A stretch of 64,000 nucleotides of DNA from Patescibacteria group bacterium (GCA_028704015.1 JAQVLT010000003.1:36997-100996), one strand, 5' to 3'. Shown: positions 1 to 42,765, counted from the first letter of the stretch. Notes: generated by a model not told the origin, from the sequence alone. A program made the numbers and translations.

Positions 1-25
1 TTTGAAATTTTTTTAAACTCTATTT

Positions 26-676
26 ATGGAATATTTGGAACATCAAAATATTGAAGAGGTAAGCATAAGTGAATTGACAAAAAAAATGGAATCAATGAGT
101 TTTCACTTACATCAAGAAACAACTGACAAAGCTCAACTAAACCCCATAAAGAGACTCTCATCAATTCAAAATGTTTGGAAAGCTGTAAAAACAAAACTTG
201 GCAATCCTAAAACCGCTCTGGATGTTGGGTCTGGATTTGCTTATGGAACTATATTTTTGGACAAGCAAAACATTAAAACCGTTGGAATTGAAAAAGTCCG
301 TTCTAAAAATACACAAGCCATAGAATTATTTCGCAAACTCGGAATCATTCTAAACAAAGTAGATGAGATTGACTTTACTAAATCCCCAGCAATTCTTGAA
401 GCTGATTTTAATTCATTGCAATCTCAAGAAGTGGCTGATTTGATAACAATGTTTTATCTTAGCGGAGAGTTGGTAACTAATCAACAAACATTCAAAGTTT
501 GCGAAAAATTACTCAAAAAAGATGGTAAAATCGTACTTTCAACTGAAGCAGATAGAAAAACAATAGAAAGTATTATTGGTAATGGAAATTTTAAATTGCC
601 AAGCGGTTTTTCTTTTGAAATAATTGATGTTCCAAACAATTTTGAAAAAACTGTTATAATATTAAACAAAGTTTAA
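26..676 (+). CDS. class I SAM-dependent methyltransferase (family unassigned)
   Basis: 216-aa ORF. Motif I-like LDVGSGFAYG, then VGIE and LKKDGKIVL at Rossmann-MTase spacing. Confidence 0.55.
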   Translation: MEYLEHQNIEEVSISELTKKMESMSFHLHQETTDKAQLNPIKRLSSIQNVWKAVKTKLGNPKTALDVGSGFAYGTIFLDKQNIKTVGIEKVRSKNTQAIELFRKLGIILNKVDEIDFTKSPAILEADFNSLQSQEVADLITMFYLSGELVTNQQTFKVCEKLLKKDGKIVLSTEADRKTIESIIGNGNFKLPSGFSFEIIDVPNNFEKTVIILNKV

Positions 677-809
677 AAAAATTTTCAAAAAATACATCGC
701 ACAACACGGTATATGCGAAATCCTGTATAATTCAAAAATATTTTTTAAAATTTAAGGATATTTAAACTTTCGATCAAAAATTTTATTAACGTATAATCTA
801 TCTATACTT

Positions 810-1691
810 ATGAACTTCAAAACACTTACTGACAACTTTCAGATTCCTGTTATTGGTCTTGGGACTTGGGGAATTGGTGGTTTTACGGAAACCGATTCTT
901 CAAAAGATACAGAGGCTATTCAAGCAATCAAGGACGCAATTGAATTGGGCTATTCACATATTGATACAGCAGAGCTTTATGGTGCGGGGCACACGCATGA
1001 ATTGATTGGCAACGCAATAAAGAATTTAGACAGATCTAAACTTATCATTACCAGCAAGGTATTCAAAACTAATTTGAAATATAATGATGTAATCGCTTCT
1101 TGCAAAAAAAGTTTAGAAAAATTGCAAACAAACTATATTGATATTTATCTCATCCATGCTCCAAATCCCGAAATACCGCTAGAAGAAACAATGAGAGCCA
1201 TGAATCATCTTGTTGGTCAAGGATTAGTTAATTATATTGGTGTTAGCAATTTTTCTGTTGAGCAGATGCAAGAAGCTCAAAAATATTTCAAAAATAAAAT
1301 CGTTGCCAATCAAATTCCTTATAACCTTGCTACAAGAAACGTTAATCTTGATCGTAATACCAACAATTTAGGTAGCTGTATTAATATGGAATCTGAAATT
1401 ATTCCCTATTGCCAGAAAAATAACATTATTATAATGGCATACAGACCAATAGAAAGAGGTTTCTTATTAAAACCAAATTTACTGCTTGATGGCTTATCCA
1501 AGAAATACGGTAAAACTAAAGCTCAAATCAGTATTAATTGGTTGGTTTCCAAAAAGAATATTATTACTATCTCCAAGTCCATAAACATAGATCATCTGAA
1601 AGAGAATTTAGGTGCAATTGGCTGGAATTTAAGCCCCGAAGATATAAAACTTTTAGACGAAATGGAATTTGAAAGTTCAAATAATTATTAA
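810..1691 (+). CDS. aldo/keto reductase
   Basis: 293 aa with GLGTWGIGG, HIDTAELYG and IYLIHAP, typical AKR motifs. Confidence 0.85.
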   Translation: MNFKTLTDNFQIPVIGLGTWGIGGFTETDSSKDTEAIQAIKDAIELGYSHIDTAELYGAGHTHELIGNAIKNLDRSKLIITSKVFKTNLKYNDVIASCKKSLEKLQTNYIDIYLIHAPNPEIPLEETMRAMNHLVGQGLVNYIGVSNFSVEQMQEAQKYFKNKIVANQIPYNLATRNVNLDRNTNNLGSCINMESEIIPYCQKNNIIIMAYRPIERGFLLKPNLLLDGLSKKYGKTKAQISINWLVSKKNIITISKSINIDHLKENLGAIGWNLSPEDIKLLDEMEFESSNNY

Positions 1692-1756
1692 AATCTCTAA
1701 ATAACAAACGCTGTCTAACAAGAGATACAAATAACTTTTCTTTTAGAAAATATTCT

Positions 1757-1779
1757 AAATCCCCTATTTTGGGGATTTT
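1757..1779 (+). terminator. hairpin AAATCCCC-TATTTT-GGGGATTT followed by a T-run
   Basis: Read directly. Lies downstream of the AKR gene and overlaps the last codons of comEC on the other strand. Confidence 0.45.
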
Positions 1780-3317
1780 TTGTTAGGAGAATTGCTATTG
1801 ACTAAATAAATTACAAATAGATAATAAATTAACACCCAGCCGAACCAAAGATAATCAACCTTGATATAAGCGTAGGGAATCCGCGACGTGTAATCAACTG
1901 CTAAAATCACAAATTTTAAAAGTAAATTCGCCGGTAGAAAAAATAAAAATGCCAAGCCGGGAAGCAAAAATCCAAGAATCATCGCCAAAAAAATAAAAAG
2001 CATTGCCGGAGCAATCGTCCAGAGAACTAATAAATTACTCAACGGCGCGACCAGGGAAATTTGCTTAAAATTATAAGCGATAATCGGCAAGGTAAAAACT
2101 TGTGCCGACAATGTTAGAGCTATAATTTCTGCGCCTAAACGAAAAAACTTATTTTTTGCTTTATCTAAATATTTTTCCCAGAGCGGATAAACATAAATCA
2201 AGCCAACTAGCGCCAAAAAAGATAGTTGAAAACCGACATCGTCCCGCAAAAGTCGCGGATTAAATAAAAGCATTGTGGCAGCTGCGAAAATCAAAGCATT
2301 GATCAGGCGACTTTTTCGACCAAGCTGAATAGCGAGCATTGCCAAAAAACTCATAACCGCCGCTCGCACCGCCGAAGCCGGCGCGCCAACCAAAATCGTA
2401 AAAATTATAATAAAAGCTAAGGACAAATAAAATGCCTGCCGCCGCCTAAGGCCAACGGCTAATAAAGCCGTCATACTGGCCGCGGCAATAATTGTCATAT
2501 TCATTCCGGAAACCGCCATGATGTGCGTGAGCCCAGTCTGCGAAAATTTCTGGTTTAATTCTTCGCCCATCCCCTGCCGGTCGCCAATCATTATCCCAAG
2601 CGCTAAACCCGACTCAGGATCAGATAGTCCAAAATTAATTATTTCGCGTATCTTATTTTTTAAAATAAAAATCTTTTTATAAAACCAATCCGCTGGTTTA
2701 TTTGTCACAATATCATCACCAATTTTTTTGATCTGCGGATAATAACAAACGGAAAAAATATTATAGCGCGCCAAATAGCGGTCATAGGAAAAATCGTTAA
2801 TCGCGTCCGGTTGTTTTAAATCACAATTAATTTCCAATTTATCGCCGAAATTATACTCGGGAAACAAATCGGCGGTGATTAATAATTTGCCGCTAACCGG
2901 TAGAGACGCATTGTCATGCGTCTCTACATTATCCGTTCCCACGGATCGTACCTTAATTTCCAATTTTTGATTATTTGACCGCACATCCGGCTCTTTATCC
3001 ACCACGCCATCTACAATAATTTTTTGGCCATTATAATGCCAAATTTTGTCCGGATAATTTTTCGGAATTGAAATTGAATAGCGCCAAACGCCAAAAAATA
3101 AAAAACAACCCCATAGGCCGAGCAGTAAAATTTTTTTATTTGACCAAGAAAAAATTGTTAAAATAAAAAACGCAACTAAAGACGAAAACCAAATAAATCT
3201 ATTTTGAATAATATTTTCTGACACGATTGAAGCCGAGACAATGCCAATAATAAAAAATAAACACAAAAATAAAAAAATCTTTGATTTAGAAAAAATAATA
3301 TCCCTCCTAAAAAACAT
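1764..3317 (-). CDS. comEC: ComEC/Rec2 DNA internalisation channel (no C-terminal MBL domain)
   Basis: 517 aa and polytopic. Competence-domain signature FSQTGLTHIMAVSGMNMTIIAA. The ORF ends before any metallo-beta-lactamase domain. Confidence 0.8.
   Translation of the reverse strand: MFFRRDIIFSKSKIFLFLCLFFIIGIVSASIVSENIIQNRFIWFSSLVAFFILTIFSWSNKKILLLGLWGCFLFFGVWRYSISIPKNYPDKIWHYNGQKIIVDGVVDKEPDVRSNNQKLEIKVRSVGTDNVETHDNASLPVSGKLLITADLFPEYNFGDKLEINCDLKQPDAINDFSYDRYLARYNIFSVCYYPQIKKIGDDIVTNKPADWFYKKIFILKNKIREIINFGLSDPESGLALGIMIGDRQGMGEELNQKFSQTGLTHIMAVSGMNMTIIAAASMTALLAVGLRRRQAFYLSLAFIIIFTILVGAPASAVRAAVMSFLAMLAIQLGRKSRLINALIFAAATMLLFNPRLLRDDVGFQLSFLALVGLIYVYPLWEKYLDKAKNKFFRLGAEIIALTLSAQVFTLPIIAYNFKQISLVAPLSNLLVLWTIAPAMLFIFLAMILGFLLPGLAFLFFLPANLLLKFVILAVDYTSRIPYAYIKVDYLWFGWVLIYYLFVIYLVNSNSPNKKSPK
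2900..2927. repeat. 28-nt GC-rich palindrome inside comEC coding sequence
   Basis: GTAGAGACGCA-TTGTCA-TGCGTCTCTAC, 11-bp perfect arms. Translated as VETHDNASL. Confidence 0.8.
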
Positions 3318-3322
3318 AAAAA

Positions 3323-3592
3323 AAATAAGAGGATATTAAAAACTCCTCTTTTTGAAATTAATCCTTTATTGGCTCATGGCCTTTCTTACGCCGTACGGCA
3401 GGCGTAAGGCGTCGGGAGGCAACACTCCTTCGGATATAATGCTGACAACTTTAGCGCCCAAAAGCGCGGCGCACCGGAAACAATCGCTCTCCCGACATCC
3501 AGGGGGACATACAACACTTTTTGGCCCTACTACGAGCAGATCCATGACTAACCTCCTTCCCTGTTGAAAAAGTACCCCCCCCTCTCTTTTTT
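3323..3592 (-). ncRNA. candidate structured RNA or cis-regulatory leader between prfB and comEC (class unknown)
   Basis: GC-rich block in an AT-rich spacer. Complementary pairs: GTCGGGAG 3411-3418 with CTCCCGAC 3489-3496; CTTACGCC with GGCGTAAG; GCGCC with GGCGC; TCATGG with CCATGA. Ends in AAGAGGA-N10-TCCTCTT plus U8 (3318-3350), which abuts the comEC ATG. No RNase P, tmRNA or SRP motifs recognised. Confidence 0.35.
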
Positions 3593-3629
3593 AGATTAAC
3601 ATAATTATTGTTTTAATGCTATTTTCTTA

Positions 3630-4727
3630 CTATATACTTCGCGCTTTGCGCAAATACGCTTCCATAAATTGTTCTAGTTCCCCATCTAAAATATTATCAA
3701 TATTTTGCGTTTCAAAATTTGTCCGATGATCTTTTACCATTTTATAAGGTTGCATGACATAAGAGCGAATTTGTTTTCCCCATTCAGCTTTCTGCGCTTC
3801 ACCGCGCATTTTCTTTTCTTCTTTGTCCTTTTCTTCTTCTTGCAATTTAAATAATTTTGATTTTAAAATTTTTAATGCGTTTTCCTTGTTCTGATGCTGA
3901 GAACGCTCAGTCTGACAAGTTACCGTGATGCCAGTCGGCTTGTGAACGACACGCACGGCCGAATCGGTAGTATTCACACTCTGACCGCCAGGACCGGATG
4001 AACGAAAAACATCAATCCGCAAATCTTCATCTTTTATTTCAATGCTTTCTGCTTCCGGCAATTCCGGTATTACCTCAACCAAAGCGAAAGAAGTATGCCG
4101 CATTTGCTCGGCGTCAAATGGCGAAATGCGAACCAAGCGATGAACGCCATTTTCACTGCGCAAATAGCCATATGCCCAGCGTCCGATAATTTTTATCACT
4201 GAGCTCTTTATACCAGCTTCATTACCCATAACTCTATCCATAATTTCCGTTTTCCAACCCCTTTTTTCCGCAAATCGTAAATACATCCGCTCTAAAATTT
4301 GCGCCCAATCTTGCGCATCAACGCCGCCCGTGCCAGCATGAATTGAAACAATTGCGTTGCTTCTGTCATATCTCCCGGAAAATAAAACTAAAAATTCAAG
4401 CTGAGAAAATTTTTCTTTCAATTCAATATATTTTTGATTTACCTCGTCATAAACCGAGACGTCATTTTCCTTCGCAGCCACTGCCGCAAATTCTTCAAGC
4501 TCTCTAACTTCTTTGGATAATTCTTCCCACTTATTTACCTCGCTCTCCAATTCTTCTAATTTTTTGCTGATTGTCACCGCCTTCTCATGATTATTCCAAA
4601 AATTGGGATTACTGATTTCCCTCTTAATTTCTCTAATTTCTGTTTTTTGCCCTTCCAAATCCAAAAGCTCCGAAGTATCTAAAATTCGCTCGCGTAATTC
4701 TTCCAAATTTTTCAATAAATTCTCCAT
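3630..4727 (-). CDS. prfB: peptide chain release factor 2
   Basis: 365 aa with the SPF tripeptide (RISPFD) and GGQ (SGPGGQSVN). One uninterrupted ORF, no +1 frameshift site. Confidence 0.92.
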   Translation of the reverse strand: MENLLKNLEELRERILDTSELLDLEGQKTEIREIKREISNPNFWNNHEKAVTISKKLEELESEVNKWEELSKEVRELEEFAAVAAKENDVSVYDEVNQKYIELKEKFSQLEFLVLFSGRYDRSNAIVSIHAGTGGVDAQDWAQILERMYLRFAEKRGWKTEIMDRVMGNEAGIKSSVIKIIGRWAYGYLRSENGVHRLVRISPFDAEQMRHTSFALVEVIPELPEAESIEIKDEDLRIDVFRSSGPGGQSVNTTDSAVRVVHKPTGITVTCQTERSQHQNKENALKILKSKLFKLQEEEKDKEEKKMRGEAQKAEWGKQIRSYVMQPYKMVKDHRTNFETQNIDNILDGELEQFMEAYLRKARSI

Positions 4728-15792: not shown

Positions 15793-17070
15793 CTAAAGAG
15801 ACAAAGAGTCTCCGGTCATGGGCGCATAAGCTTCGCACCCAAGCTCGCGCGCCAGGCAAACCACTGCCTGACAAGCTTGCGGACTGCCATGCTGGGCAAT
15901 GACAATCCGAGGTTTGACCATCTGAATCGCTTGGCGGATGGCCGCGGCATCGGAATGAGCGGAGAAGCTTAGCTTCTCAACGTGGCAGCCCAATCTGACG
16001 CGTTCTCCACCAACGGAAATATTGCCAGTTTTCAGAAGATCTCTCCCTCTTGTGTCCTCTGCCTGATAACCGGCCAAAATAAGGAGATTCTTCGGATCAG
16101 GACCTTTTACTCGGATGTATTCCATGATAGGACCGCCCTCAAGCATGCCGCTCGTGGCGACAAATACACCTTGCGAAATTAGGTGTATCTGGCGATCCCA
16201 TTGGGAAATCCGCCTGACGGAGTAAAGCGCTTGGCGAAGTGCTTCGGGATCCCGAAGATATTCCGAATGCGCGAGAAATACATCCGTCACATTATTCCCC
16301 ATGCCATCCAAATGCACCGGGCAAGAGAGGCCCATCTCGGCAAGGAGAAGGAGAATCTCTTGCGTCCTCGCCAGCGCGAAGGCGGCGATCATCACTGAAC
16401 CGCCACCAGCGATTGTCTCGGCAACCAGAGACTTAAATCTCTCTTCAACCGCAGTCCTGTCAGGATGCGACCTGTCCCCATAAGTCGCATCAATGATAAG
16501 AATCTCCGCATGCGGAAGACGCTCGCATTTTTTCACGAGGCGAGTATCCATGCTATTAAAATCGCCGGTATAAAGCAATGACCTCCTACCTTGCTTCAGA
16601 ATGATACTGACTGAGCCGGGAATATGGCCAGCCGGGAAAAACTGATAGTGGACATTGCCGCGACGACCCTTTTCTTTGTACCGCATGAGCGACAGTACTC
16701 TCTCAATGTCGCTCTCATTATATCGCGGCTCTTGCTTCTTCTTCGCCGCAATTTTCAGAGAGTCATAGAGAAGAAGCTCTGCCGCTTCTTTGGTGATCGG
16801 CGTACAGAAGACGGGGCAATTCAGCCCATCTTTTGCCAGTTCAGCCAAGCCGCCAACATGGTCAAGATGCCCATGAGAAATCGCCGCGAAGCTGATTTTC
16901 TCCAGCCGCGTGATTTTTTCGGGCCAAGCCATAATTTTGGTTCCGCCTATGTTCGCGGGTTTGAGTCCATAATCAAGAAGGATCCGAGACCCATCAGGAA
17001 ATACTGCTTCGATGCAGCTTCTCCCAACTTCGGATCCTGCACCGTGCATTGTTATCCCGATGTTTCCCAT
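15793..17070 (-). CDS. MBL-fold beta-CASP family hydrolase (RNA/DNA-processing nuclease type)
   Basis: HGHLDHVGG motif and C-terminal FSAHSDAAAI...AQHGSP (beta-CASP motifs B/C). GC-rich. The ORF track begins at GTG 17079; ATG 17070 follows GGAGA. Confidence 0.8.
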   Translation of the reverse strand: MGNIGITMHGAGSEVGRSCIEAVFPDGSRILLDYGLKPANIGGTKIMAWPEKITRLEKISFAAISHGHLDHVGGLAELAKDGLNCPVFCTPITKEAAELLLYDSLKIAAKKKQEPRYNESDIERVLSLMRYKEKGRRGNVHYQFFPAGHIPGSVSIILKQGRRSLLYTGDFNSMDTRLVKKCERLPHAEILIIDATYGDRSHPDRTAVEERFKSLVAETIAGGGSVMIAAFALARTQEILLLLAEMGLSCPVHLDGMGNNVTDVFLAHSEYLRDPEALRQALYSVRRISQWDRQIHLISQGVFVATSGMLEGGPIMEYIRVKGPDPKNLLILAGYQAEDTRGRDLLKTGNISVGGERVRLGCHVEKLSFSAHSDAAAIRQAIQMVKPRIVIAQHGSPQACQAVVCLARELGCEAYAPMTGDSLSL

Positions 17071-17131
17071 ATTGACCACATCTCCTCTCGCTTTGATTTT
17101 TAGCTAAAAAGAACAACTTTACAGATTATGA

Positions 17132-17160
17132 ATATTATCAATTAAAAATAACCCTGTCAA
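17132..17160 (-). promoter_or_regulatory. sigma70-type promoter for the MBL gene
   Basis: Minus strand reads TTGACA, 17-nt spacer, TAATAT. Confidence 0.45.
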
Positions 17161-17213
17161 CTTCAAAATATTATTTAAAATTAGCAAAAATTAATAGTTT
17201 CTTAATAAAAACG

Positions 17214-17242
17214 TTGACAAAATAATTAAGATATGTTATTAT
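17214..17242 (+). promoter_or_regulatory. sigma70-type promoter
   Basis: TTGACA (17214-17219), 17-nt spacer, TATTAT (17237-17242). Confidence 0.45.
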
Positions 17243-17272
17243 TTTATGTTAATTGTTCTTTGAAAGACGTTT

Positions 17273-17330
17273 AGTTCTTGCCGGTTTTGTTGCTAAAATT
17301 TAGCGCTAAAACCGGCAAGAACTGTTTTTT
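17273..17330 (+). terminator. leader terminator/attenuator hairpin
   Basis: Perfect 16-bp stem AGTTCTTGCCGGTTTT / AAAACCGGCAAGAACT, 19-nt loop, then GTTTTTT. Sits between the promoter and the ATG at 17392. Confidence 0.5.
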
Positions 17331-17391
17331 GTTTTCAATTTTACGCGCTTTTCGCGCGCACCCATTCACACACCACAAAGGAGGAAGCACC

Positions 17392-18096
17392 ATGACGGAA
17401 GAGCGATATGACCATATTATGGTAAGCCTCAGGGCAAACCGGAACATGGTGGAGAGGGGGCGAAAGTTGGGTCTCCCCTACGTATTCCGGACAAAGCAAC
17501 AGCAGAAAGAGCTAACCGCGCTGTATGCGGCGAAAGCGGGTGAGGCCAAGGCGTTCCGGCTGGAGCGCGAGGACACCGCCGGCAATCCCCAGGCTGACGG
17601 TGGCAACCTCGTCTTCGGACGGAATGGCCAGGAGAACATCCATCTCTGGTCCCTCTTGGACGACTTGTCCAAGGCCGGCTACGGTCTGACCATCGCCGAG
17701 GTCTTCCAGAAGGAGAGCGACAGTAACGGCGTTGGTTTCATCAGGTTTGTTTTTACCCACGACAAAGCCGTTGTGATGCCGACCTTCTTCGAGGTCAGCG
17801 AAGAACAAGAGCGCTTTATGACTCTTCTCTTCAAACGCCTTTACCGGAAGGTGCACGGTTTCCGAAACAACGCGGCGGTCTCGCTCGAGGGCGAACAAAA
17901 CCCGATCCAGGGGCCCATCATCACGCTCAACGTGGCCGGCCCAGTCACGGAAGCGCGTGAACTCGAAGAGCGGCGCCCTTATCGCCGCGACCTGCGGCTC
18001 CTGGACGAGCTCGGGCATTTCCGGTGCCCGCTCCACGACTCCCAGGCCCACGCTCTGGCCAAGAAGCAGAAGGCCTCCGTCCAGGCCCCCGCCTGA
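17392..18096 (+). CDS. hypothetical protein (GC-rich, no recognisable domain)
   Basis: The ORF track starts at 17278, but ATG 17392 is preceded by AAAGGAGGAAGCACC. 234 aa. Confidence 0.55.
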   Translation: MTEERYDHIMVSLRANRNMVERGRKLGLPYVFRTKQQQKELTALYAAKAGEAKAFRLEREDTAGNPQADGGNLVFGRNGQENIHLWSLLDDLSKAGYGLTIAEVFQKESDSNGVGFIRFVFTHDKAVVMPTFFEVSEEQERFMTLLFKRLYRKVHGFRNNAAVSLEGEQNPIQGPIITLNVAGPVTEARELEERRPYRRDLRLLDELGHFRCPLHDSQAHALAKKQKASVQAPA

Positions 18097-18262
18097 CCCC
18101 ACCCTCGTTCTTTATCTTCCGACCCAATCGGGTCATATCTGGCCCCCGGCAAGAACAACACAAAAAATCGTGTTCGTTTCTTCCGGGGGTCTTGTCTTTT
18201 TAAAAATAAAAATCCCCGAAAGGTGGGGTCAAAAAATAAATTTGAGAGCCGAAAAATCTCTA

Positions 18263-23349: not shown

Positions 23350-23549
23350 AGAAATCAGTAAAATAGTAAACAGTAATTAGTAAATAATAATTTATCTACC
23401 ATTTACTAATTACTGTCTGTTATTTACTAAATATTATACCCCACTTTTTTTCCTTTGACAATTTAGAAAAAATAATTTATATTATTTATATAAAAACAGT
23501 GTCCATATTCACTGTATTTTTAATTAGAAATCAAACAAAATTAATTTTA

Positions 23550-23633
23550 GCCGAAGTGGCGAAACTGGTAGACGCGCACGACTCAAAATCGTGTGGAAGC
23601 AATTCCATGAGAGTTCGATTCTCTCCTTCGGCA
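23550..23633 (+). tRNA. tRNA-Leu(CAA), type II with a long variable arm
   Basis: Hand-folded. Acceptor GCCGAAG/CTTCGGC, anticodon stem CACGA/TCGTG with loop CTCAAAA, T-arm GAGAG-TTCGATT-CTCTC. No encoded CCA. Confidence 0.9.
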
Positions 23634-23708
23634 CAAATAATTTTTGATTTTCGATTTTTGAATAATGTTTACTTAAAAAATCTAAAATCGTAAATCAAAA
23701 ATTACTAA

Positions 23709-23780
23709 GGACGCTTAGCTCAGCTGGTTACCCGCCCGTACCGAACGCGGTACGTTCGGGCGGGGAGCGCCTCGTTTACA
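23709..23780 (+). pseudogene. tRNA-Val 5' half (nt 1-37) disrupted by a 34-nt GC palindrome in the D-loop
   Basis: GGACGCTTAGCTCAGCTGGTTA [CCCGCCCGTACCGAACGCGGTACGTTCGGGCGGG] GAGCGCCTCGTTTACA. Apart from the insert it is identical to 24027-24064. Confidence 0.75.
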
Positions 23781-23794
23781 ACTAATAATTTAAT

Positions 23795-24049
23795 ATGTAC
23801 ACAGTGTATATTTTAAAAGATGAAAATGGAAATTTGTATAAAGGCATGACAAGTGATATAAAACGAAGATTAAATGAACATCGGCGAGGAAAAACACAAA
23901 CTACTAGAAGAATGAAAAATATCAAATTAGTTTATCAAGAAGAGCTGGCTACATTTGATGCTGCACGCAAAAGAGAATTATATTTGAAAACTGCCGCTGG
24001 AAGAAAATTTATAAAAGAAAAATTAAGGACGCTTAGCTCAGCTGGTTAG
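23795..24049 (+). CDS. small GIY-YIG nuclease family protein (UPF0213/YhbQ-like)
   Basis: 84 aa. YTVYILKDENGNLYKGMTSDIKRRLNEHRRGK... The last 7-8 codons and the stop lie inside tRNA-Val. Confidence 0.85.
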   Translation: MYTVYILKDENGNLYKGMTSDIKRRLNEHRRGKTQTTRRMKNIKLVYQEELATFDAARKRELYLKTAAGRKFIKEKLRTLSSAG

Positions 24050-24103
24050 AGCGCCTCGTTTACACCGAGGAGGTCGAGGGTTCGATCCCTTCAGCGTCCA
24101 CCA
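24027..24103 (+). tRNA. tRNA-Val(TAC), CCA encoded
   Basis: Hand-folded. GGACGCT/AGCGTCC acceptor, D-arm GCTC..GAGC, anticodon stem CCTCG/CGAGG with loop TTTACAC, T-loop TTCGATC, then ACCA. Confidence 0.92.
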
Positions 24104-24107
24104 AAAA

Positions 24108-24134
24108 AGCTAAACCAAGGGGGTTTAGCTTTTT
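24108..24134 (+). terminator. hairpin AGCTAAACC-AAGGG-GGTTTAGCT plus TTTT
   Basis: Read directly, immediately 3' of tRNA-Val. Confidence 0.55.
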
Positions 24135-24185: not shown

Positions 24186-25805
24186 ATGAAGAATGAAAAA
24201 AAACCGGAAAAGGTTGCCTTGTTGAGCGTTTTCAACAAGGACGGGATTGTGGAGTTTGCTCGCACCCTCAAGAACATGGGCTGGAAACTTCTTGCTTCCG
24301 GGGGCACGGCGCAGACGCTCAAAAACGCCGGGCTGGAAGTCAAGGATGTCGCGGACCTGGTCGGCGGCGGCGCTATTCTTGGACACCGCGTGGTCACGCT
24401 CTCACGGGAAATCCACGCCGGCCTTTTGGCGCGTGACATCCCTGAGGACAACGCGGAGCTGGACCGGCTGGGGATCCCGCGCATCGATCTTCTTTGCTCG
24501 GATCTCTACCCGCTTGAGCTGGCCATTGCCGCAGGTAAAACCATGCCCGAGGTCATTGAGATGACCGACATCGGCGGACCCACGCTGATCCGTTCGGCGG
24601 CAAAAGGCCGCCGTATTGTCATCTGCAACCCAAGGGACCGCATGGTTGTTCTCGGCTGGATGACCAGCGGCGAGCTGGACAAGGAAAGCTTCTTAAACAT
24701 GCTTGCCGCCAAAGCCGAAATGACCGTCGCCCGCTACGCACTATCTTCGGCGCGTTTCATCAGCGGCGGCGAGTTCGACGGTTTCCTCGGCCAACGCTAT
24801 CTTGAATGCCTATACGGGGAAAACGCCCCGCAGACTCCGGCCGGCGTCTTTAGCGCCCGTACAAGCGACCTGCTGGCGCTGGACAAACTCCGGCTCTTGA
24901 CCGAAACGTCGTCAAGCTACAACAATACGTGCGACCATGACCGGCTGCTCCAGACAATCACGCACATCGCCGCCGGCTTTGACCTCAACTTCGGCGAAGT
25001 GCCATATATCGCCGTGGCGGTCAAACACGGCAATCCCTGCGGCGTTGGCGTTGGAAAGACGCCGGAAGAAGCTCTCAAGAAGATGATTGACGGCGATCTT
25101 CGCGCCATTCTCGGCGGCATCGTCATGACCAACTTCCTGATAGACGAGACGGCCGCGAAAATCCTGGCCGTCTACCAGGTGCCCGTAAGGAAAAGGCGCT
25201 TGCTGGACGGGATTATCTGCCCGGTCATCACAGATAAGGCCGTTGCGATGCTCGAACGGAAAAAAGCCAAATGCCGGATTCTCATGAACCCTGCTCTAGC
25301 GGAACTGAACGAGAAATCACTGGACACGGCTCCCCGCCTTCGCTGCGTCCGCGGCGGATTTATGGTTCAGCCGAACTACACTTTCATTCTGGATCTGAAC
25401 CACCCGGAAATGAAAAAGTTCGGCCAGGCCACGCCTGAACAGAAACGCGCTATGGTGCTTGCCTGGGCTATCGCAGCCACGGCCAACAGCAACACCATCG
25501 CGCTTGTGAAGGACGGCATGCTTGTCGGCCTGGGATCTGGCCAGCAAGACCGTGTCGGCGCTTGCAAGGTGGCCTGTTTCCGAGCTGACGAATCCGGCCA
25601 TGACATCTTTGGGGCGATTGCGGCAAGCGATAGCTTCTTCCCCTTTGATGATGGCCCGCGCGCCCTTGCCGACAGGGGCGTCAAGGTGATCTTTTCTACC
25701 TCTGGCTCGATCAACGACCAAGCGGTCATTGACTTCTGCCAGGAAAACGGCATCGTGCTCTACATGCTTCCGGACAAGGTGGCCAGGGGTTTCTTCGGCC
25801 ACTAA
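24186..25805 (+). CDS. purH: bifunctional AICAR transformylase / IMP cyclohydrolase
   Basis: 539 aa. MGS-like N-terminus ALLSVFNKDGIVEFARTL..LASGGTAQTL and AICARFT domain. SD GGAGT upstream. GC-rich. Confidence 0.9.
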   Translation: MKNEKKPEKVALLSVFNKDGIVEFARTLKNMGWKLLASGGTAQTLKNAGLEVKDVADLVGGGAILGHRVVTLSREIHAGLLARDIPEDNAELDRLGIPRIDLLCSDLYPLELAIAAGKTMPEVIEMTDIGGPTLIRSAAKGRRIVICNPRDRMVVLGWMTSGELDKESFLNMLAAKAEMTVARYALSSARFISGGEFDGFLGQRYLECLYGENAPQTPAGVFSARTSDLLALDKLRLLTETSSSYNNTCDHDRLLQTITHIAAGFDLNFGEVPYIAVAVKHGNPCGVGVGKTPEEALKKMIDGDLRAILGGIVMTNFLIDETAAKILAVYQVPVRKRRLLDGIICPVITDKAVAMLERKKAKCRILMNPALAELNEKSLDTAPRLRCVRGGFMVQPNYTFILDLNHPEMKKFGQATPEQKRAMVLAWAIAATANSNTIALVKDGMLVGLGSGQQDRVGACKVACFRADESGHDIFGAIAASDSFFPFDDGPRALADRGVKVIFSTSGSINDQAVIDFCQENGIVLYMLPDKVARGFFGH

Positions 25806-25829
25806 TCAAAATTCTTTTAATCCTCCAGC

Positions 25830-25876
25830 AGGACTTTCAAAGTTTCTTACGAGAAACTACGAAAGTCCTTTTTTTC
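25830..25876 (+). terminator. hairpin AGGACTTTC...GAAAGTCCT plus T7
   Basis: Read directly after purH. Confidence 0.6.
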
Positions 25877-26024
25877 TTGCTTTTTTCTTAAAATTTATCT
25901 AATATAAAGTTAGAAAGGAGGGCCAATCTTATCGTAAGATTCGGCTCTTTTTGCACCTTGAAAAAATCGATTTTGAAAACCGTAGAGATAAACTGACAAC
26001 CCCTCAACGGAAAGGACTGATGCA

Positions 26025-27509
26025 ATGGACGAACGGTATACCATAGAAAAAATTACGAAAATCTGGTCGACTGAGAACAAGCTCAGTCTCTGGCAAAAAA
26101 CCGAACTCATGGCAATCAAAGCCAGGGTGATTCTCGGCCTTGTCGCCGAGACGATTTTCCTGAAGATCGAGGAAACGCTCAAGCGAATCCCGATTGACAT
26201 CCCGTGGTGGAAAAACCGCGACAAAGAGATCCGCCACGACCTTAACGCCTTTCTCGATGAGAGACTCCGTCACCTGACCGAGGAATTACAGCGCTACCTG
26301 CACGAGGACATGACCTCCTACGATACGGAGGAACCGGCTTTTGTGTGCATGCTCAGGGAGTCAGTGCAGATTGTCATCAGGAGTCTGGAAGAAGTCTGCA
26401 AAACTCTGAAAGCAATGGCACTCAAATACCGCTACACAATCATGAACGCCAGAACCCACGGACAGGAAGCCAAGCTGCAAAGCTTTGGTAAAAGATGCCT
26501 TACCTGGTACGTGATTTTGCAATTAGACCTCAACAACCTGAAGAATACGGTCAGTTCTCTCAAGTATGCCAAGCTTTCCGGCGCTGCCGGGAACTACGGC
26601 GACATGGATCCGGCGGTGGAGATCGAAACTCTGAAACAGCTTGGATTCGAACCGCTCTACGGCACACCCCAGATCCTTCCCCGCGAGCTTTTTGCTCCAC
26701 TGGCGCAAGCGCTCTGCCAGATCGTGCAGTCGTTGGACAAAATCGCGACCGATATTAGATTAGGCGCGCGTAGTGGACGGCCGATCTTGCAAGAGCCGTT
26801 CGGAAAAAAGCAAAAGGGCTCTTCCGCCATGCCGCATAAAAAAAACACCATCCGCACCGAGCAGATGGAAGGCATGGCGCGCATGGCGCGCGGCTACATG
26901 AATATGATCCTGGAAGCGATCAAAACCTGGGAAGAACGGGCTATTGAACAATCCTGCGTGGAAAGAGTGGCCTGGCCTGATCTCTTCCATGTGGTCGTTC
27001 ATTCACTGAAAACCATGAACGCAGTACTAACCGGCCTAACCGTTTATCCCGACAATATGCTTCTGGAAATCGCTGATTCCTGCGGAACTTACGCTTCGGA
27101 AGAAGCAAAAAAGCTTCTCCGGGAATTCCTGGCGGAACGCGGATTGTCAAGCGAAGTGGCCTACCGTATCGTGCAACTCGCCGCCTTCAATGCTCTGGAA
27201 CTTAGCGGCGGTTTCCAAAGATTGCGTGATGGCATTCCTTCAACGATAGAAGAAGCGGAAGTGGCGTTAAAGGAAGCTTCTAGTTTGGATCGACCAAGGA
27301 GAGAAAGCATCCAGGACATCATCCCTTTAGGCCATTTGCGCCACTCACCCCAACTCGAAGCTACCGAGAAAGAAATCGAGGGATGGAACGTGATGCTGTT
27401 CACCATCTTCTCGAGTCGCAGAATTCGCGATCGCTGGAACCAAATCTTCCGGCCGTCATACCAGCTAAGACGCGAACCTTTTCTCTACGAAAAGATACTT
27501 GGAAAATAA
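26025..27509 (+). CDS. purB: adenylosuccinate lyase
   Basis: Fumarate-lyase signature GSSAMPHKKNT. N-terminus RYTIEKITKIWSTENK. Confidence 0.9.
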   Translation: MDERYTIEKITKIWSTENKLSLWQKTELMAIKARVILGLVAETIFLKIEETLKRIPIDIPWWKNRDKEIRHDLNAFLDERLRHLTEELQRYLHEDMTSYDTEEPAFVCMLRESVQIVIRSLEEVCKTLKAMALKYRYTIMNARTHGQEAKLQSFGKRCLTWYVILQLDLNNLKNTVSSLKYAKLSGAAGNYGDMDPAVEIETLKQLGFEPLYGTPQILPRELFAPLAQALCQIVQSLDKIATDIRLGARSGRPILQEPFGKKQKGSSAMPHKKNTIRTEQMEGMARMARGYMNMILEAIKTWEERAIEQSCVERVAWPDLFHVVVHSLKTMNAVLTGLTVYPDNMLLEIADSCGTYASEEAKKLLREFLAERGLSSEVAYRIVQLAAFNALELSGGFQRLRDGIPSTIEEAEVALKEASSLDRPRRESIQDIIPLGHLRHSPQLEATEKEIEGWNVMLFTIFSSRRIRDRWNQIFRPSYQLRREPFLYEKILGK

Positions 27510-27535
27510 CCCCCCCCACCGAAAGGAGACCGCCC

Positions 27536-28093
27536 ATGAATCCTAAATTTGTACCGCAAGTCGTAATCATCGCCGGAAGCGACACGGATCTCAAAGCGAT
27601 TGAAGATGCCGGTATGTTGAAGGCCTTCCAGGAAATGAGCATAACCTACGCTCTTTCCTTTCTCTCCGCACACCGCCATCCTGATGATCTGAAGAACTAT
27701 TTACTCGCCATGGAAAAGGAAGGTACTCTAGTTTTCATCGGGATCGCCGGCATGTCCGCTGCTCTTCCTGGAGATATGTCAGCAATTCTCAAAAACAAAC
27801 GTCCTGTCATCGGAGTTCCTTTGATCGCACCCGACGGATTCAGCGGTCTGGATGCTCTTTTCTCCATGATCCGTTTGCCAGCAAGCACTGCCGTGGCCGT
27901 CCCGGGAATCGGCAAAGCAGGACTGAAAAACGCGACGATCCTTGCTTGCCAGATTCTTGGAGTAGAGCGGCCCGAAACACAGGTCGCTTTGAACAACTAC
28001 CTCACGAAAAAAGCGGCCAAAAAGCCACCCCAACCCGACTTCGAAATTTTTAACGGGAAAACCGTTCACCACCAACATAAAGGAGGAGCATAA
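27536..28093 (+). CDS. purE: PurE (AIR carboxylase / N5-CAIR mutase family)
   Basis: VVIIAGSDTDL, SAHRHPDD, AGMSAALPG, PVIGVPL. The ORF track starts at 27383, but ATG 27536 follows GAAAGGAGA. Confidence 0.85.
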   Translation: MNPKFVPQVVIIAGSDTDLKAIEDAGMLKAFQEMSITYALSFLSAHRHPDDLKNYLLAMEKEGTLVFIGIAGMSAALPGDMSAILKNKRPVIGVPLIAPDGFSGLDALFSMIRLPASTAVAVPGIGKAGLKNATILACQILGVERPETQVALNNYLTKKAAKKPPQPDFEIFNGKTVHHQHKGGA

Positions 28094-28096
28094 CCC

Positions 28097-28987
28097 ATGA
28101 TCCAGCCCCTGTTCGAAACCAACTTTCCCGGCCTTCCCGTTCCTCGTCGCGGCAAAGTCCGCGACATCTATGACCTAGGTGATTTTCTGCTCATGGTCGC
28201 CACTGACCGGCTATCAGCTTTCGACGTGGTCATGAAGGACCCGATCCCAGGTAAAGGCATTACCCTCACGCAGATGACCTTGTTCTGGCTGGAAATGTTC
28301 GCAGATATGGTGTTGAACCACTTGGTTACGGCTGATCCCGCCCAGTACCCGGACATCTGCAAACCCTACGCCGACATTCTTGTCGGCCGCAGCATGCTGG
28401 TCAAAAAATGTGCGCCCCTGCCAGTGGAATGCATCGTCCGCGGCTACCTTAGCGGTTCCGGCTGGAATGATTACAAAAAGACCGGATGCGTCTGCGGCAT
28501 CCAGCTTCCGCCCGGCCTTCTGGAATCGGCGCAGCTTCCTGAACCGATTTTCACGCCTTCTACCAAGGCTGAGCAGGGCAAGCACGACGAGAACATTTTG
28601 TTTGAACAAGCAGTAAAACTACTCAGCCGCGAGACCGCAGAAAAAATCCAAAAACTCTCACTCGCGCTCTACCAACGGGCCGCGGCTCATGCCCGCAGAC
28701 GCGGCATCATCATAGCGGACACGAAATTCGAGTTCGGGCTTGATAAAGACGGCAACATCGTGCTGATAGACGAGGTTCTCACCTCGGATTCATCCAGGTT
28801 TTGGCCCGCCGCCCAATACGAACCCGGACATGGCCAGCCGAGCTTTGACAAACAAGGCGTCCGCGACTTTCTGGTTAAGATCGGCTGGGACAAAAAGCCG
28901 CCTGCACCCAAACTCCCGATCGGCGTCATCGCCGAGACGCGCGAGAAGTACCTGAAGGCTCTCCGCCTCCTCACCGGCCAATTCTAA
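28097..28987 (+). CDS. purC: SAICAR synthetase
   Basis: GKVRDIYD, LIDEVLTSDSSRFW. Confidence 0.92.
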   Translation: MIQPLFETNFPGLPVPRRGKVRDIYDLGDFLLMVATDRLSAFDVVMKDPIPGKGITLTQMTLFWLEMFADMVLNHLVTADPAQYPDICKPYADILVGRSMLVKKCAPLPVECIVRGYLSGSGWNDYKKTGCVCGIQLPPGLLESAQLPEPIFTPSTKAEQGKHDENILFEQAVKLLSRETAEKIQKLSLALYQRAAAHARRRGIIIADTKFEFGLDKDGNIVLIDEVLTSDSSRFWPAAQYEPGHGQPSFDKQGVRDFLVKIGWDKKPPAPKLPIGVIAETREKYLKALRLLTGQF

Positions 28988-41574: not shown

Positions 41575-42765
41575 TTAAATCTCAATTATTCCCCCTCCCA
41601 ATATTTCATCACCTTTATAAAATACCGCACTCTGCCCAGCCGTAATCGCCCGTTCGGGTTTCTCTAGTCGTGCGAATAGGGCATTATCTTGCTCCCACGC
41701 GACATTACCCTGTTCTTTTTTAGCTCCCCTCGCCTGGCTGGCCTGCCTGCCGGCGAGGCAGGGAGAGGGACAGGGGGCGAGGGTGCATTTTATCGGCTTA
41801 TGCCGATATCTTATCACTACTTCACATTTAAACGGAAATTTCGGCTCTGCACACGAAACCCAATTCACGTTGCTGAGATAAAATTTATCGCTATAAAGTA
41901 GCGGGTCATCATGGTCGCTCGTCACATATAAAATATTTTTTTTATAATCGCACTTCACTACGTAATACGGCCCGGTGCCGCCAATCTCCACACCGCGCCT
42001 CTGCCCAATCGTGTACAACGGCAGGCCTTTGTGCTCGCCGACGACCTCTCCCCCGTCCCCTCTCCTAATTAGGAGAGGGGTGGCGGAGCCGGGGAGAGGT
42101 TTAGCGGAGGTGAGGGCAATAATCTTACCTGGTTTTAATTTTATTTTTCCTTTCAAAAATTCATTGTGCTCCCCGGGAAGAAAACAAACATCCTGGCTCT
42201 CGGTTTTTAAATTTGGCAAACCCGCTTTGGCTGCAATTTTTTTAATATCTTCTTTTTTGTAATCCCCAAGCGGAAATAAAATCTTTTGTAATTTTTCCTG
42301 TGTTAAAGTATATAAAAAATAACTCTGATCCTTACTCTCGTCCTTCCCCTTTATCAATTTATATAAATACTTTTTACTTTTTACTTTATACTTTTTACTT
42401 TTTACGTAATGACCTGTTGCCAAATAATCCGCTCCCAGTTCGCGCGCGATTTGTAAAAGCTTTCCAAATTTTATAAATTTATTGCATTTGACACACGGAT
42501 TCGGCGTAATGCCGCGCTCATAACTTTCTAAAAAATAATTAATAATTTCTTTTTTAAACTCCGGCGCCAGATTGACTGGATAAAATTTTATTCCCAACTT
42601 CTGACAGACATGCCGCGCCGCGTCCTCGGCATTTTTATTTTCCACGCCCAAACGCATAAAAACTCCCATTACTTCATAACCGGCTTTTTTTAATATCATT
42701 GCGGTAACGGAAGAATCCACTCCGCCTGATATGGCAACTATTATTTTTCTTTTTTTCTTTATCAT
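41575..42765 (-). CDS. mnmA: tRNA 2-thiouridine(34) synthase
   Basis: PP-loop VAISGGVDSS, NPCVKCN, TIGQRRG, AITAGQSAVFY. Two element insertions. Confidence 0.9.
   Translation of the reverse strand: MIKKKRKIIVAISGGVDSSVTAMILKKAGYEVMGVFMRLGVENKNAEDAARHVCQKLGIKFYPVNLAPEFKKEIINYFLESYERGITPNPCVKCNKFIKFGKLLQIARELGADYLATGHYVKSKKYKVKSKKYLYKLIKGKDESKDQSYFLYTLTQEKLQKILFPLGDYKKEDIKKIAAKAGLPNLKTESQDVCFLPGEHNEFLKGKIKLKPGKIIALTSAKPLPGSATPLLIRRGDGGEVVGEHKGLPLYTIGQRRGVEIGGTGPYYVVKCDYKKNILYVTSDHDDPLLYSDKFYLSNVNWVSCAEPKFPFKCEVVIRYRHKPIKCTLAPCPSPCLAGRQASQARGAKKEQGNVAWEQDNALFARLEKPERAITAGQSAVFYKGDEILGGGIIEI
41724..41786. repeat. GC-rich palindromic insertion (CCTGCCTGCCGGC family) in frame in mnmA
   Basis: CCCTCGCC...GCCTGCCTGCCGGCGAGGCAGG...GGCGAGGG. 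Translated PCPSPCLAGRQASQARG. Confidence 0.7.
42044..42100. repeat. 57-nt nested palindromic element, in frame in mnmA
   Basis: ACCTCTCCCCCGTCCCCTCTCCTAATTAGGAGAGGGGTGGCGGAGCCGGGGAGAGGT. Translated KPLPGSATPLLIRRGDGGEV. Confidence 0.85.

Follow-up and report, generated by a model that had tools for sequence, protein, structure and literature searches.

A small GIY-YIG nuclease cassette, probably a homing element, residing in the tRNA genes of Patescibacteria

A 64,000-nucleotide stretch of a Patescibacteria group genome (GCA_028704015.1, JAQVLT010000003.1:36997-100996; hereafter the window) contains a tRNA operon in which a short open reading frame (ORF) for a predicted GIY-YIG nuclease lies between a palindrome-split fragment of tRNA-Val and an intact tRNA-Val gene. 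By analogy with known mobile nuclease genes we regard this feature as a probable free-standing homing-endonuclease cassette with tRNA genes as its habitat, one of a large family in Patescibacteria. As judged from sequence comparison, such cassettes are widespread at tRNA genes of this group, and occupied, empty and decayed tRNA-Val sites are found among close relatives of the window genome.

The locus was described using ARAGORN for tRNAs, an Rfam scan, a repeat finder and direct reading of the sequence (Table 1). From 5' to 3' it comprises a promoter, tRNA-Leu, a tRNA-Val fragment consisting of positions 1-21 and 22-37 on either side of a GC-rich palindrome (HP), a 14-nt spacer, the ORF, tRNA-Val and a terminator. 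Since the promoter precedes tRNA-Leu and the terminator follows tRNA-Val, the ORF is situated inside the tRNA operon without signals of its own. The two tRNA-Val repeats are separated by 243 bp and agree at 41/41 nt, their identity stopping after TTTACA, i.e. after A37, and both pairs of repeat intervals in the original prediction were recovered exactly by reading and by the repeat finder, as was this end point. The best local match between the upstream DNA and tRNA-Val scores 22, compared with a maximum of 8 in shuffled sequences (n = 50). Codons 78-84 of the ORF and its TAG stop (24047-24049) fall within tRNA-Val, as had been claimed. A second public assembly (GCA_028707515.1) contains the same 3.3 kb with one mismatch, so the locus is not an assembly artefact. 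Over the whole window Rfam matches only the two tRNAs and RNase P RNA; the locus thus contains no ribozyme or known RNA, in accord with the earlier statement that there is no room for a group I ribozyme.

Table 1. Features of the tRNA operon and nuclease cassette, in window coordinates
Feature	Position	Strand	Basis
Sigma-70-like promoter of the tRNA operon, TTGACA-17-TATATT	23455..23483	+	11/12 consensus match only
tRNA-Leu(CAA), first gene of the operon, uninvaded in the window	23550..23634	+	ARAGORN, Rfam
Displaced tRNA-Val fragment, part 1: 3-nt leader and positions 1-21	23706..23730	+	exact 25-nt repeat of 24024-24048
GC-rich palindrome (HP), 34 nt, at D-arm junction 21/22 (GGTTA/GAGC)	23731..23764	.	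fold and uniqueness tests
Displaced tRNA-Val fragment, part 2: positions 22-37	23765..23780	+	exact 16-nt repeat of 24049-24064
AT-rich 14-nt spacer from fragment end to ATG	23781..23794	+	sequence reading
Stand-alone GIY-YIG nuclease ORF (predicted), 84 residues	23795..24049	+	ORF call, Pfam PF01541
Intact tRNA-Val(TAC), CCA encoded	24027..24103	+	ARAGORN; Rfam 68 bits
Hairpin resembling an intrinsic terminator, end of operon	24104..24134	+	repeat finder and signal check

The ORF product matches the GIY-YIG family PF01541 (E = 1.5e-13; 51.2 bits, cut-off 22.6), and its nearest solved structures are the UPF0213 proteins 1zg2 (4.3e-10) and 1ywl (5.1e-10), which upholds its original description as an 84-residue UPF0213-type GIY-YIG ORF. 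Slx1 was a weak match in the same search of solved-structure sequences, and NCBIfam offered no specific family for the ORF, returning only a weak UvrC-like match. Residues Y5, Y15, R25, H29, E61 and K65 are invariant in 49 homologues, and by analogy the first five would be the catalytic Tyr/Tyr/Arg/His/Glu. Similarity among these homologues ends after AAGRRFLKxKL, so the C-terminal tails differ, and the window protein is a single catalytic domain of 77 conserved residues with no extra domain. These comparisons place it in a stand-alone, UPF0213-like branch of the GIY-YIG superfamily. Close homologues are all from Patescibacteria and are 77-87 residues long, and a protein identical to that of the window has been annotated in a metagenome-assembled genome of Patescibacteria. 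Profile searching of 1.84 billion cluster representatives gave 19,831 relatives with E <= 1e-3, of which 3,209 reach E <= 1e-10; IMG/VR viral contigs contained none.

A scan using one genome per species identified 435 relatives of the ORF, and the best 80 loci (these and the further loci below carry L numbers) were fetched with flanks amounting to 493 kb. In 73 of these 80 loci a tRNA gene on the same strand starts within 60 nt of the ORF match. Three of the seven exceptions (L003, L004 and L078) have an extra HP-disrupted tRNA copy between the ORF and the tRNA, and the remainder are masked by N (L007), cut by contig ends (L021 and L077) or arranged as a mirror image (L040). The original prediction had named GIY-YIG genes at non-tRNA loci with no duplication as contrary evidence, and on this point the 80 loci come out in favor of the prediction. 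The partner tRNAs are Ala (16), Thr (16), Asp (14), Val (13), Phe (5), Ile (5), Lys (2), Arg (2) and His (1), with a tenth species, tRNA-Met, in the mirror-image locus.

The reading frame leads directly into tRNA position 1, and the join is precise in many of these loci. From the AAGRR motif to that position there are exactly 32 nt in 29/73, and the stop codon lies inside the tRNA in 58/73 (~79%), those ORFs consequently having no stop of their own. The TAG formed by U8-A9-G10 of the tRNA serves as the stop in 43/73 loci, the D-loop TAG in nine (the window included) and positions 9-14 in six more. Tandem cassette units occur in L046 and L040. An ORF and its nearest neighbour share the tRNA species in 30 of 74 cases, as against 11.8 by chance, and ORF identity is 64.1% within tRNA types vs 62.3% between them; the ORF tree barely follows tRNA species and is incongruent with location.

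In most loci nucleotides 1 to 20-22 of the local tRNA are found again 45-125 nt 5' of the ATG, with positions 22 to thirty-something repeated just ahead of this codon. The upstream fragment ends anywhere from position 31 to 44 (median 37), often flush against the ATG, the gap being 0-30 nt in loci other than the window. Given this spread, the 37/38 break in the window is one value among several and not a fixed intron-like site, and the earlier emphasis on 37/38 as the canonical intron position is not supported by the comparison. Positions 1-7 of the fragment equal those of the local tRNA in 32 of 50 loci, the figure being 9% for same-anticodon tRNAs of other loci, and in ~10 loci fragment and local tRNA are clearly different alleles. 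A duplication that extends upstream into a copy of the ORF tail is clear only in L011, L014, L024, L041 and L046; the signal is weak in the window (12/24) and overall (mean 9.4 vs 7.5). The co-occurrence of fragment and ORF across loci goes against a tandem tRNA array decaying independently of the ORF, an alternative that the original prediction had raised.

Partial duplication of a tRNA gene is known from integrative elements, and tRNA introns classically lie at 37/38, facts that could favor reading the locus as an integrase attachment remnant (attL/attR) in a tRNA gene or as a degenerate intron. The attachment reading is contradicted by the missing recombinase, the GIY-YIG gene being the only ORF in the 243 bp between the repeats, by duplication of the 5' and not the 3' part of the tRNA, and by recurrence of the pattern in more than 70 loci without an integrase. 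An intron is contradicted by the lack of any ribozyme family match in Rfam, by the completeness of the downstream tRNA-Val, which leaves nothing to splice, and by a fragment end that varies from 31 to 44, leaving the insertion position unfixed. We regard both as refuted for practical purposes and give them a negligible probability.

The palindrome occurs once in the window, where 0 matches are expected by chance, and folds as single-stranded DNA with -14.5 kcal/mol (z = -3.6). The HP family has the consensus CCCGCCCG...CGGGCGGG, a core of AACGTACC/GGTACGTT or AACGACTGA/TCAGTCGTT and a median length of 36 nt. In 62 of 74 loci it interrupts the tRNA fragment at a junction of the D-arm, the sites including 21/22 (GGT(T)A/GAGC) in 37, at 9/10 (TA/GCTC) in 12, at 13/14 (GCTC/AGTT) in four and at 10/11 in two. 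With this frequency HP regularly accompanies the cassette and is no chance hit, and the original picture of a redundant half-tRNA hit by a palindrome is not supported where it implies an incidental event. Both orientations occur (39 vs 23), the element is at times doubled or nested, and the window copy and the L024 form are reverse complements of each other. Virtually all HP copies in the flanks lie within a few hundred nucleotides of the ORF, and their density in the ~100-nt fragments is ~2000 times that of the remaining flanking DNA.

An unbiased scan of metagenome contigs for the HP pattern found at least 120 stretches in varied contexts (L084-L203). Among the matches listed, 10 of 81 copies on low-GC contigs have an ORF-type GIY-YIG gene within 500 nt and four are in a D-arm context, and 37 of 80 lie inside long stop-free frames. 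The length is divisible by three in 26 of these 37, as expected for tolerated in-frame insertions; in-frame palindromic insertions are known from Rickettsia and offer a likeness. HPs therefore constitute a wider mobile palindrome family, with enormous enrichment in the tRNA fragments that adjoin the nuclease gene. Palindrome type also varies with nuclease subfamily, even on a single contig (L040) and between L081 and the window, which hints at functional coupling of nuclease and palindrome. Target-site duplications, scored as flanking repeats of at least 4 nt, were present at 0/63 HP copies in GIY-YIG loci and 5/80 elsewhere. Insertion at the centers of existing hairpins was considered and rejected (flank complementarity 2.08 of 8 vs 2.03 in controls), and an RNA pseudoknot reading of the core (order A-X-Y-X'-Y'-A') was dropped because of its zero-length loops and the occurrence of both orientations. 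The pattern has 23 matches in IMG/VR, mostly in high-GC DNA and none with an ORF-type GIY-YIG gene or tRNA nearby, and these look unrelated. The window itself has a second GC palindrome of another type (CCTGCCTGCCGG...CAGG; 41727-41783), resembling those of a tRNA-Leu cassette in L081 described below; it lies in frame within an mnmA-like tRNA thiouridylase ORF (41575-42765, minus strand), between two domains.

Such observations raise the prospect that the palindrome is the primary element. GC palindromes would themselves be mobile (cf. REP/RAYT and mitochondrial GC clusters), the small GIY-YIG protein would be their mover, and tRNA fragments would simply be the tolerated landing sites closest to the gene. 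The ~2000-fold HP density in fragments, the tracking of ORF subfamily by palindrome type (L040; L081 vs window), the two orientations and nesting, and the HP copies in coding or intergenic sequence of low-GC contigs, remote from tRNAs, are all in keeping with this. Just 10 of the 81 listed low-GC copies, however, have a GIY-YIG gene within 500 nt, and palindrome mobility alone leaves the tRNA duplication, the exact ORF-tRNA fusion and the foreign replacement tRNAs unexplained. As a full account we think it distinctly unlikely, though it is compatible with homing and both may be true together.

Evidence of gain and loss comes from close relatives located via ParA and read in the orientation of the window. 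L081 (ParA 88% identical) has the same order of parA, tRNA-Leu and tRNA-Val, and its host leader runs directly into an intact tRNA-Val, constituting the empty site that the original prediction had proposed seeking in related genomes. In L083 (ParA 91%) the leader is followed by GGACGCTTAGCT, palindromes, TTAGAGCAT..., 25 nt and an intact tRNA-Val with no ORF, an arrangement that reads as a decayed cassette from which the ORF has gone. The promoter motif of tRNA-Leu is kept in both relatives. The tRNA-Val of the window has an encoded CCA and a C27:G43 pair, and those of L081 and L083 have U27:A43 and no encoded CCA. The DNA 3' of tRNA-Val is unlike in all three genomes, suggesting that this region is a rearrangement hot spot. 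A further ORF-less remnant is present in L144 (2980-3180), in the order tRNA-Met 1-21, palindrome, tRNA-Met 22-31, ~70 nt and intact tRNA-Met. Neighboring genes in L144 (Lgt-like) are perhaps not from Patescibacteria, and the cassette family may therefore reach other phyla.

These relatives also bear on the proposal that no mobile element is involved, in which a housekeeping UPF0213-type gene is co-transcribed with tRNAs and the half-tRNA is an unrelated, decaying tandem duplicate. UPF0213 proteins are indeed widespread chromosomal genes of unknown role, and the ORF has no promoter of its own inside the tRNA operon. Such a gene would not be expected to have ten tRNA partners, multiple copies per genome and tandem arrays, a fragment in nearly every locus that always adjoins the ORF, or close relatives with an empty site and an ORF-less remnant. 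We consider this proposal largely refuted and very improbable.

Several loci combine fragments and intact tRNAs of different alleles. In L081 the tRNA-Leu(CAA), the orthologue of the uninvaded tRNA-Leu of the window, is split by a GIY-YIG ORF of another subfamily (MQYFVYIIS...). Read on the reverse complement of 1-4100 (~400-960 in that orientation), the order is native tRNA-Leu 5' part (to ~47), ORF, intact tRNA-Leu of another allele and native 3' part (from ~27), with a palindrome in the anticodon loop of each native piece. The loci L020 (Ile) and L011 (Phe) likewise have a native 5' piece, the ORF, a foreign intact tRNA and a native 3' piece. The upstream fragment of L003 (Thr) has a different acceptor stem, and a matching palindrome-bearing 5' copy lies between its ORF and intact tRNA. 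In these four (L081-Leu, L020-Ile, L011-Phe and L003-Thr), unlike in the window with its identical copies, the layout fits co-transfer of flanking sequence and displacement of a native piece. L083 has the foreign tRNA-Leu allele alone and no ORF, which suggests a completed allele replacement.

The mirror-image locus L040 (700-2500) has an intact tRNA-Met followed by the ORF and a tRNA 3' part with a palindrome in its anticodon loop. Its cassettes occur in tandem pairs and represent two GIY-YIG subfamilies, each with its own palindrome type. The original prediction of a tRNA-targeting GIY-YIG insertion accompanied by a redundant 5' fragment is supported by the survey as a whole, but its corollary that the insertion rebuilds the 5' half of its target is not general, as L081, L020 and L011 have a whole foreign tRNA within a split native one and L040 duplicates the 3' part.

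The main rival to homing, which we think unlikely, is a transposition-like insertion. Staggered nicks ~35-45 nt apart, at tRNA position -1/+1 and near the anticodon loop, would allow the ORF DNA to be joined, and fill-in would duplicate tRNA position 1 to ~37, making target homology unnecessary. This would explain why the duplicated copies are identical in the window (41/41) and why positions 1-7 follow the local tRNA elsewhere (32/50), as well as the exactness of the right junction across tRNA species. It would also permit free change of tRNA species, accounting for colonization of a new species with an exact junction and a matching fragment. Overlaps are moreover found flanking the cassettes that carry a whole tRNA (27-47 in L081 and ~18-52 in L020), and the mirror-image L040 duplicates 29-76. 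On the other hand, strand-transfer activity is not known for a bare GIY-YIG domain, the left junction is variable (31-44), and neither the loci in which fragments and intact tRNA are of different alleles nor the near-constant palindrome are explained.

Under the homing reading that we favor, the mechanism, which we infer from the parallels offered by T4 SegB and by mitochondrial mobile ORFs (mORFs), would begin when the nuclease breaks, at a conserved stem-loop, a tRNA gene that has no cassette. Repair by recombination would then copy in the nuclease gene together with enough tRNA sequence (the 5' part, the 3' part or the whole gene) to provide a working tRNA, and the displaced piece of the old gene would stay behind as the fragment. 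The palindrome would either travel with the fragment or re-insert into it, and its presence there, breaking up the direct repeat as well as any site for the nuclease that the old piece retains, would stabilize the cassette. Once the operon is transcribed, RNase P cutting at tRNA position 1 would remove the last codons and stop of the ORF, and since the end of the ORF is detached in this way, processing probably keeps the nuclease level low.

A number of points weigh against this account. Its support throughout comes from comparative sequence, and the protein is without the DNA-binding domain that Seg and I-TevI use for long targets. The intact tRNA beside the ORF has an unbroken D-arm, so self-immunity is not accounted for, and simple homing fails to explain new tRNA species with an exact junction and matching fragment. 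The two tRNA-Val copies in the window are identical, and the native one is consequently not distinguishable, and no relatives of the ORF that would point to a vector were found in IMG/VR.

More tentatively, we speculate that the cassette could be a "tRNA gene replacement drive" of two cooperating parts, a 77-residue nuclease devoid of a DNA-binding domain and its cognate GC palindrome. The nuclease would recognize the stem-loop or palindrome geometry of tRNA genes and would move the palindrome, or the palindrome would plug the cut site, the same nuclease spreading palindromes into further genes of the reduced genomes. The resident tRNA gene would be destroyed, the cassette's own copy installed and the cell thereby made cassette-dependent. 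Taken jointly, these propositions are possible but doubtful.

The UPF0213 proteins of known structure, 1zg2 (BH0048) and 1ywl (EF2693), share the size and single domain of the window protein, and we know of no tRNA linkage or mobility for them. Literature on UPF0213, the Candidate Phyla Radiation (CPR) and Bacteroidetes yielded no tRNA-linked GIY-YIG elements, and such cassettes go unmentioned in a survey of Patescibacteria tRNA introns (PMC13011429). Full-text searches likewise returned nothing on Patescibacteria that describes the palindromes or a tRNA-linked GIY-YIG cassette, in line with the original remark that the architecture was not recognized as a described element type.

One of the closest known systems is T4 SegB, whose site contains a conserved tRNA T-arm motif and which drives the inheritance of itself and neighboring tRNA genes (PMC2330249). 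Both are GIY-YIG genes that lie among tRNA genes and not in an intron. SegB, however, is a phage protein with extra DNA-binding regions, whereas the window ORF encodes the catalytic domain alone; fusion to a tRNA is not a feature of SegB, and no duplicated tRNA fragment or palindrome has been reported for it. The Patescibacteria family, in contrast to SegB, is chromosomal and was not found in IMG/VR viral contigs.

Mitochondrial mORFs of Allomyces, Glomus, Rhizopus and Mortierella bring replacement gene ends and displace the native ones (PMC3630166). They share with the cassette an endonuclease ORF in an essential gene with a replacement gene end, a native end left as a nearby duplicate, an inserted copy that can be foreign and, in some cases, an ORF in the reading frame of the host gene. 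They differ in having organellar protein-coding targets and full-size LAGLIDADG or GIY-YIG proteins, whereas the cassette is ~0.3 kb, occupies a bacterial tRNA gene (usually its 5' end) and has a displaced piece that is regularly split by a palindrome.

The palindromes resemble yeast mitochondrial GC clusters and fungal or sponge hairpin elements (PMC4478555, PMC2800124) in being short, GC-rich and found in AT-rich genomes, in their potential for nesting and in their ability to lie within genes. Those elements are organellar and unrelated in sequence, whereas HP clusters in tRNA fragments that adjoin a nuclease gene. Within the same host group, and closest among the reports found, CPR rRNA genes have GIY-YIG ORFs in non-intron insertion sequences (PMC11270868). 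As with the cassette, structural RNA genes are affected, ribozymes are missing and the insertions are located at the tops or bases of stem-loops. The CPR insertions interrupt rRNA genes, however, and neither tRNA genes nor palindromes appear in the text of that report, whose authors judged the GIY-YIG ORFs to fall outside spread by homing (PMC11270868).

Among these systems the cassette would fit best with free-standing homing endonuclease genes and mORFs, from which it differs in five respects: a bacterial tRNA target, a far smaller size, no binding domain, fusion to the tRNA with a borrowed stop, and a regular palindrome. With its ~0.3 kb and ~77-residue nuclease it is among the smallest self-contained endonuclease cassettes known to us.

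The genomes of Patescibacteria are very small, and the majority of their tRNA genes are essential and present as single copies. That a selfish element inhabits exactly such genes and yet always leaves a working copy would indicate that homing elements can exploit essential RNA genes without an intron. Cassettes of this type would account for pseudo-fragments of tRNAs, and for odd, short "GIY-YIG nuclease family protein" annotations, across hundreds of metagenome-assembled genomes, would imply horizontal replacement of tRNA alleles and point to a GC palindrome family that also inserts into protein-coding genes. Should the nuclease recognize the structure of tRNA genes although it has no binding domain, its enzymatic mechanism would be of interest, as would its use as a compact tool.

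The DNA neighboring the operon has features of its own. Beginning ~50 nt past the tRNA-Val terminator, a block of 52-60% GC (24186-28987; genome ~35%) encodes purH, a purB-like lyase, purE and purC, and was probably acquired horizontally as a purine-synthesis cluster. At the far end of this GC-rich island there is no repeat of tRNA-Val, which would have marked an integrated element. Between parB and parA, and outside any rRNA gene, lies a free-standing gene for a "23S rRNA intervening sequence protein" (PF05635; 22187-22531, minus strand). A second patch of ~50% GC (15793-18100) has an unassigned ORF in addition to a beta-CASP/metallo-beta-lactamase RNase gene.

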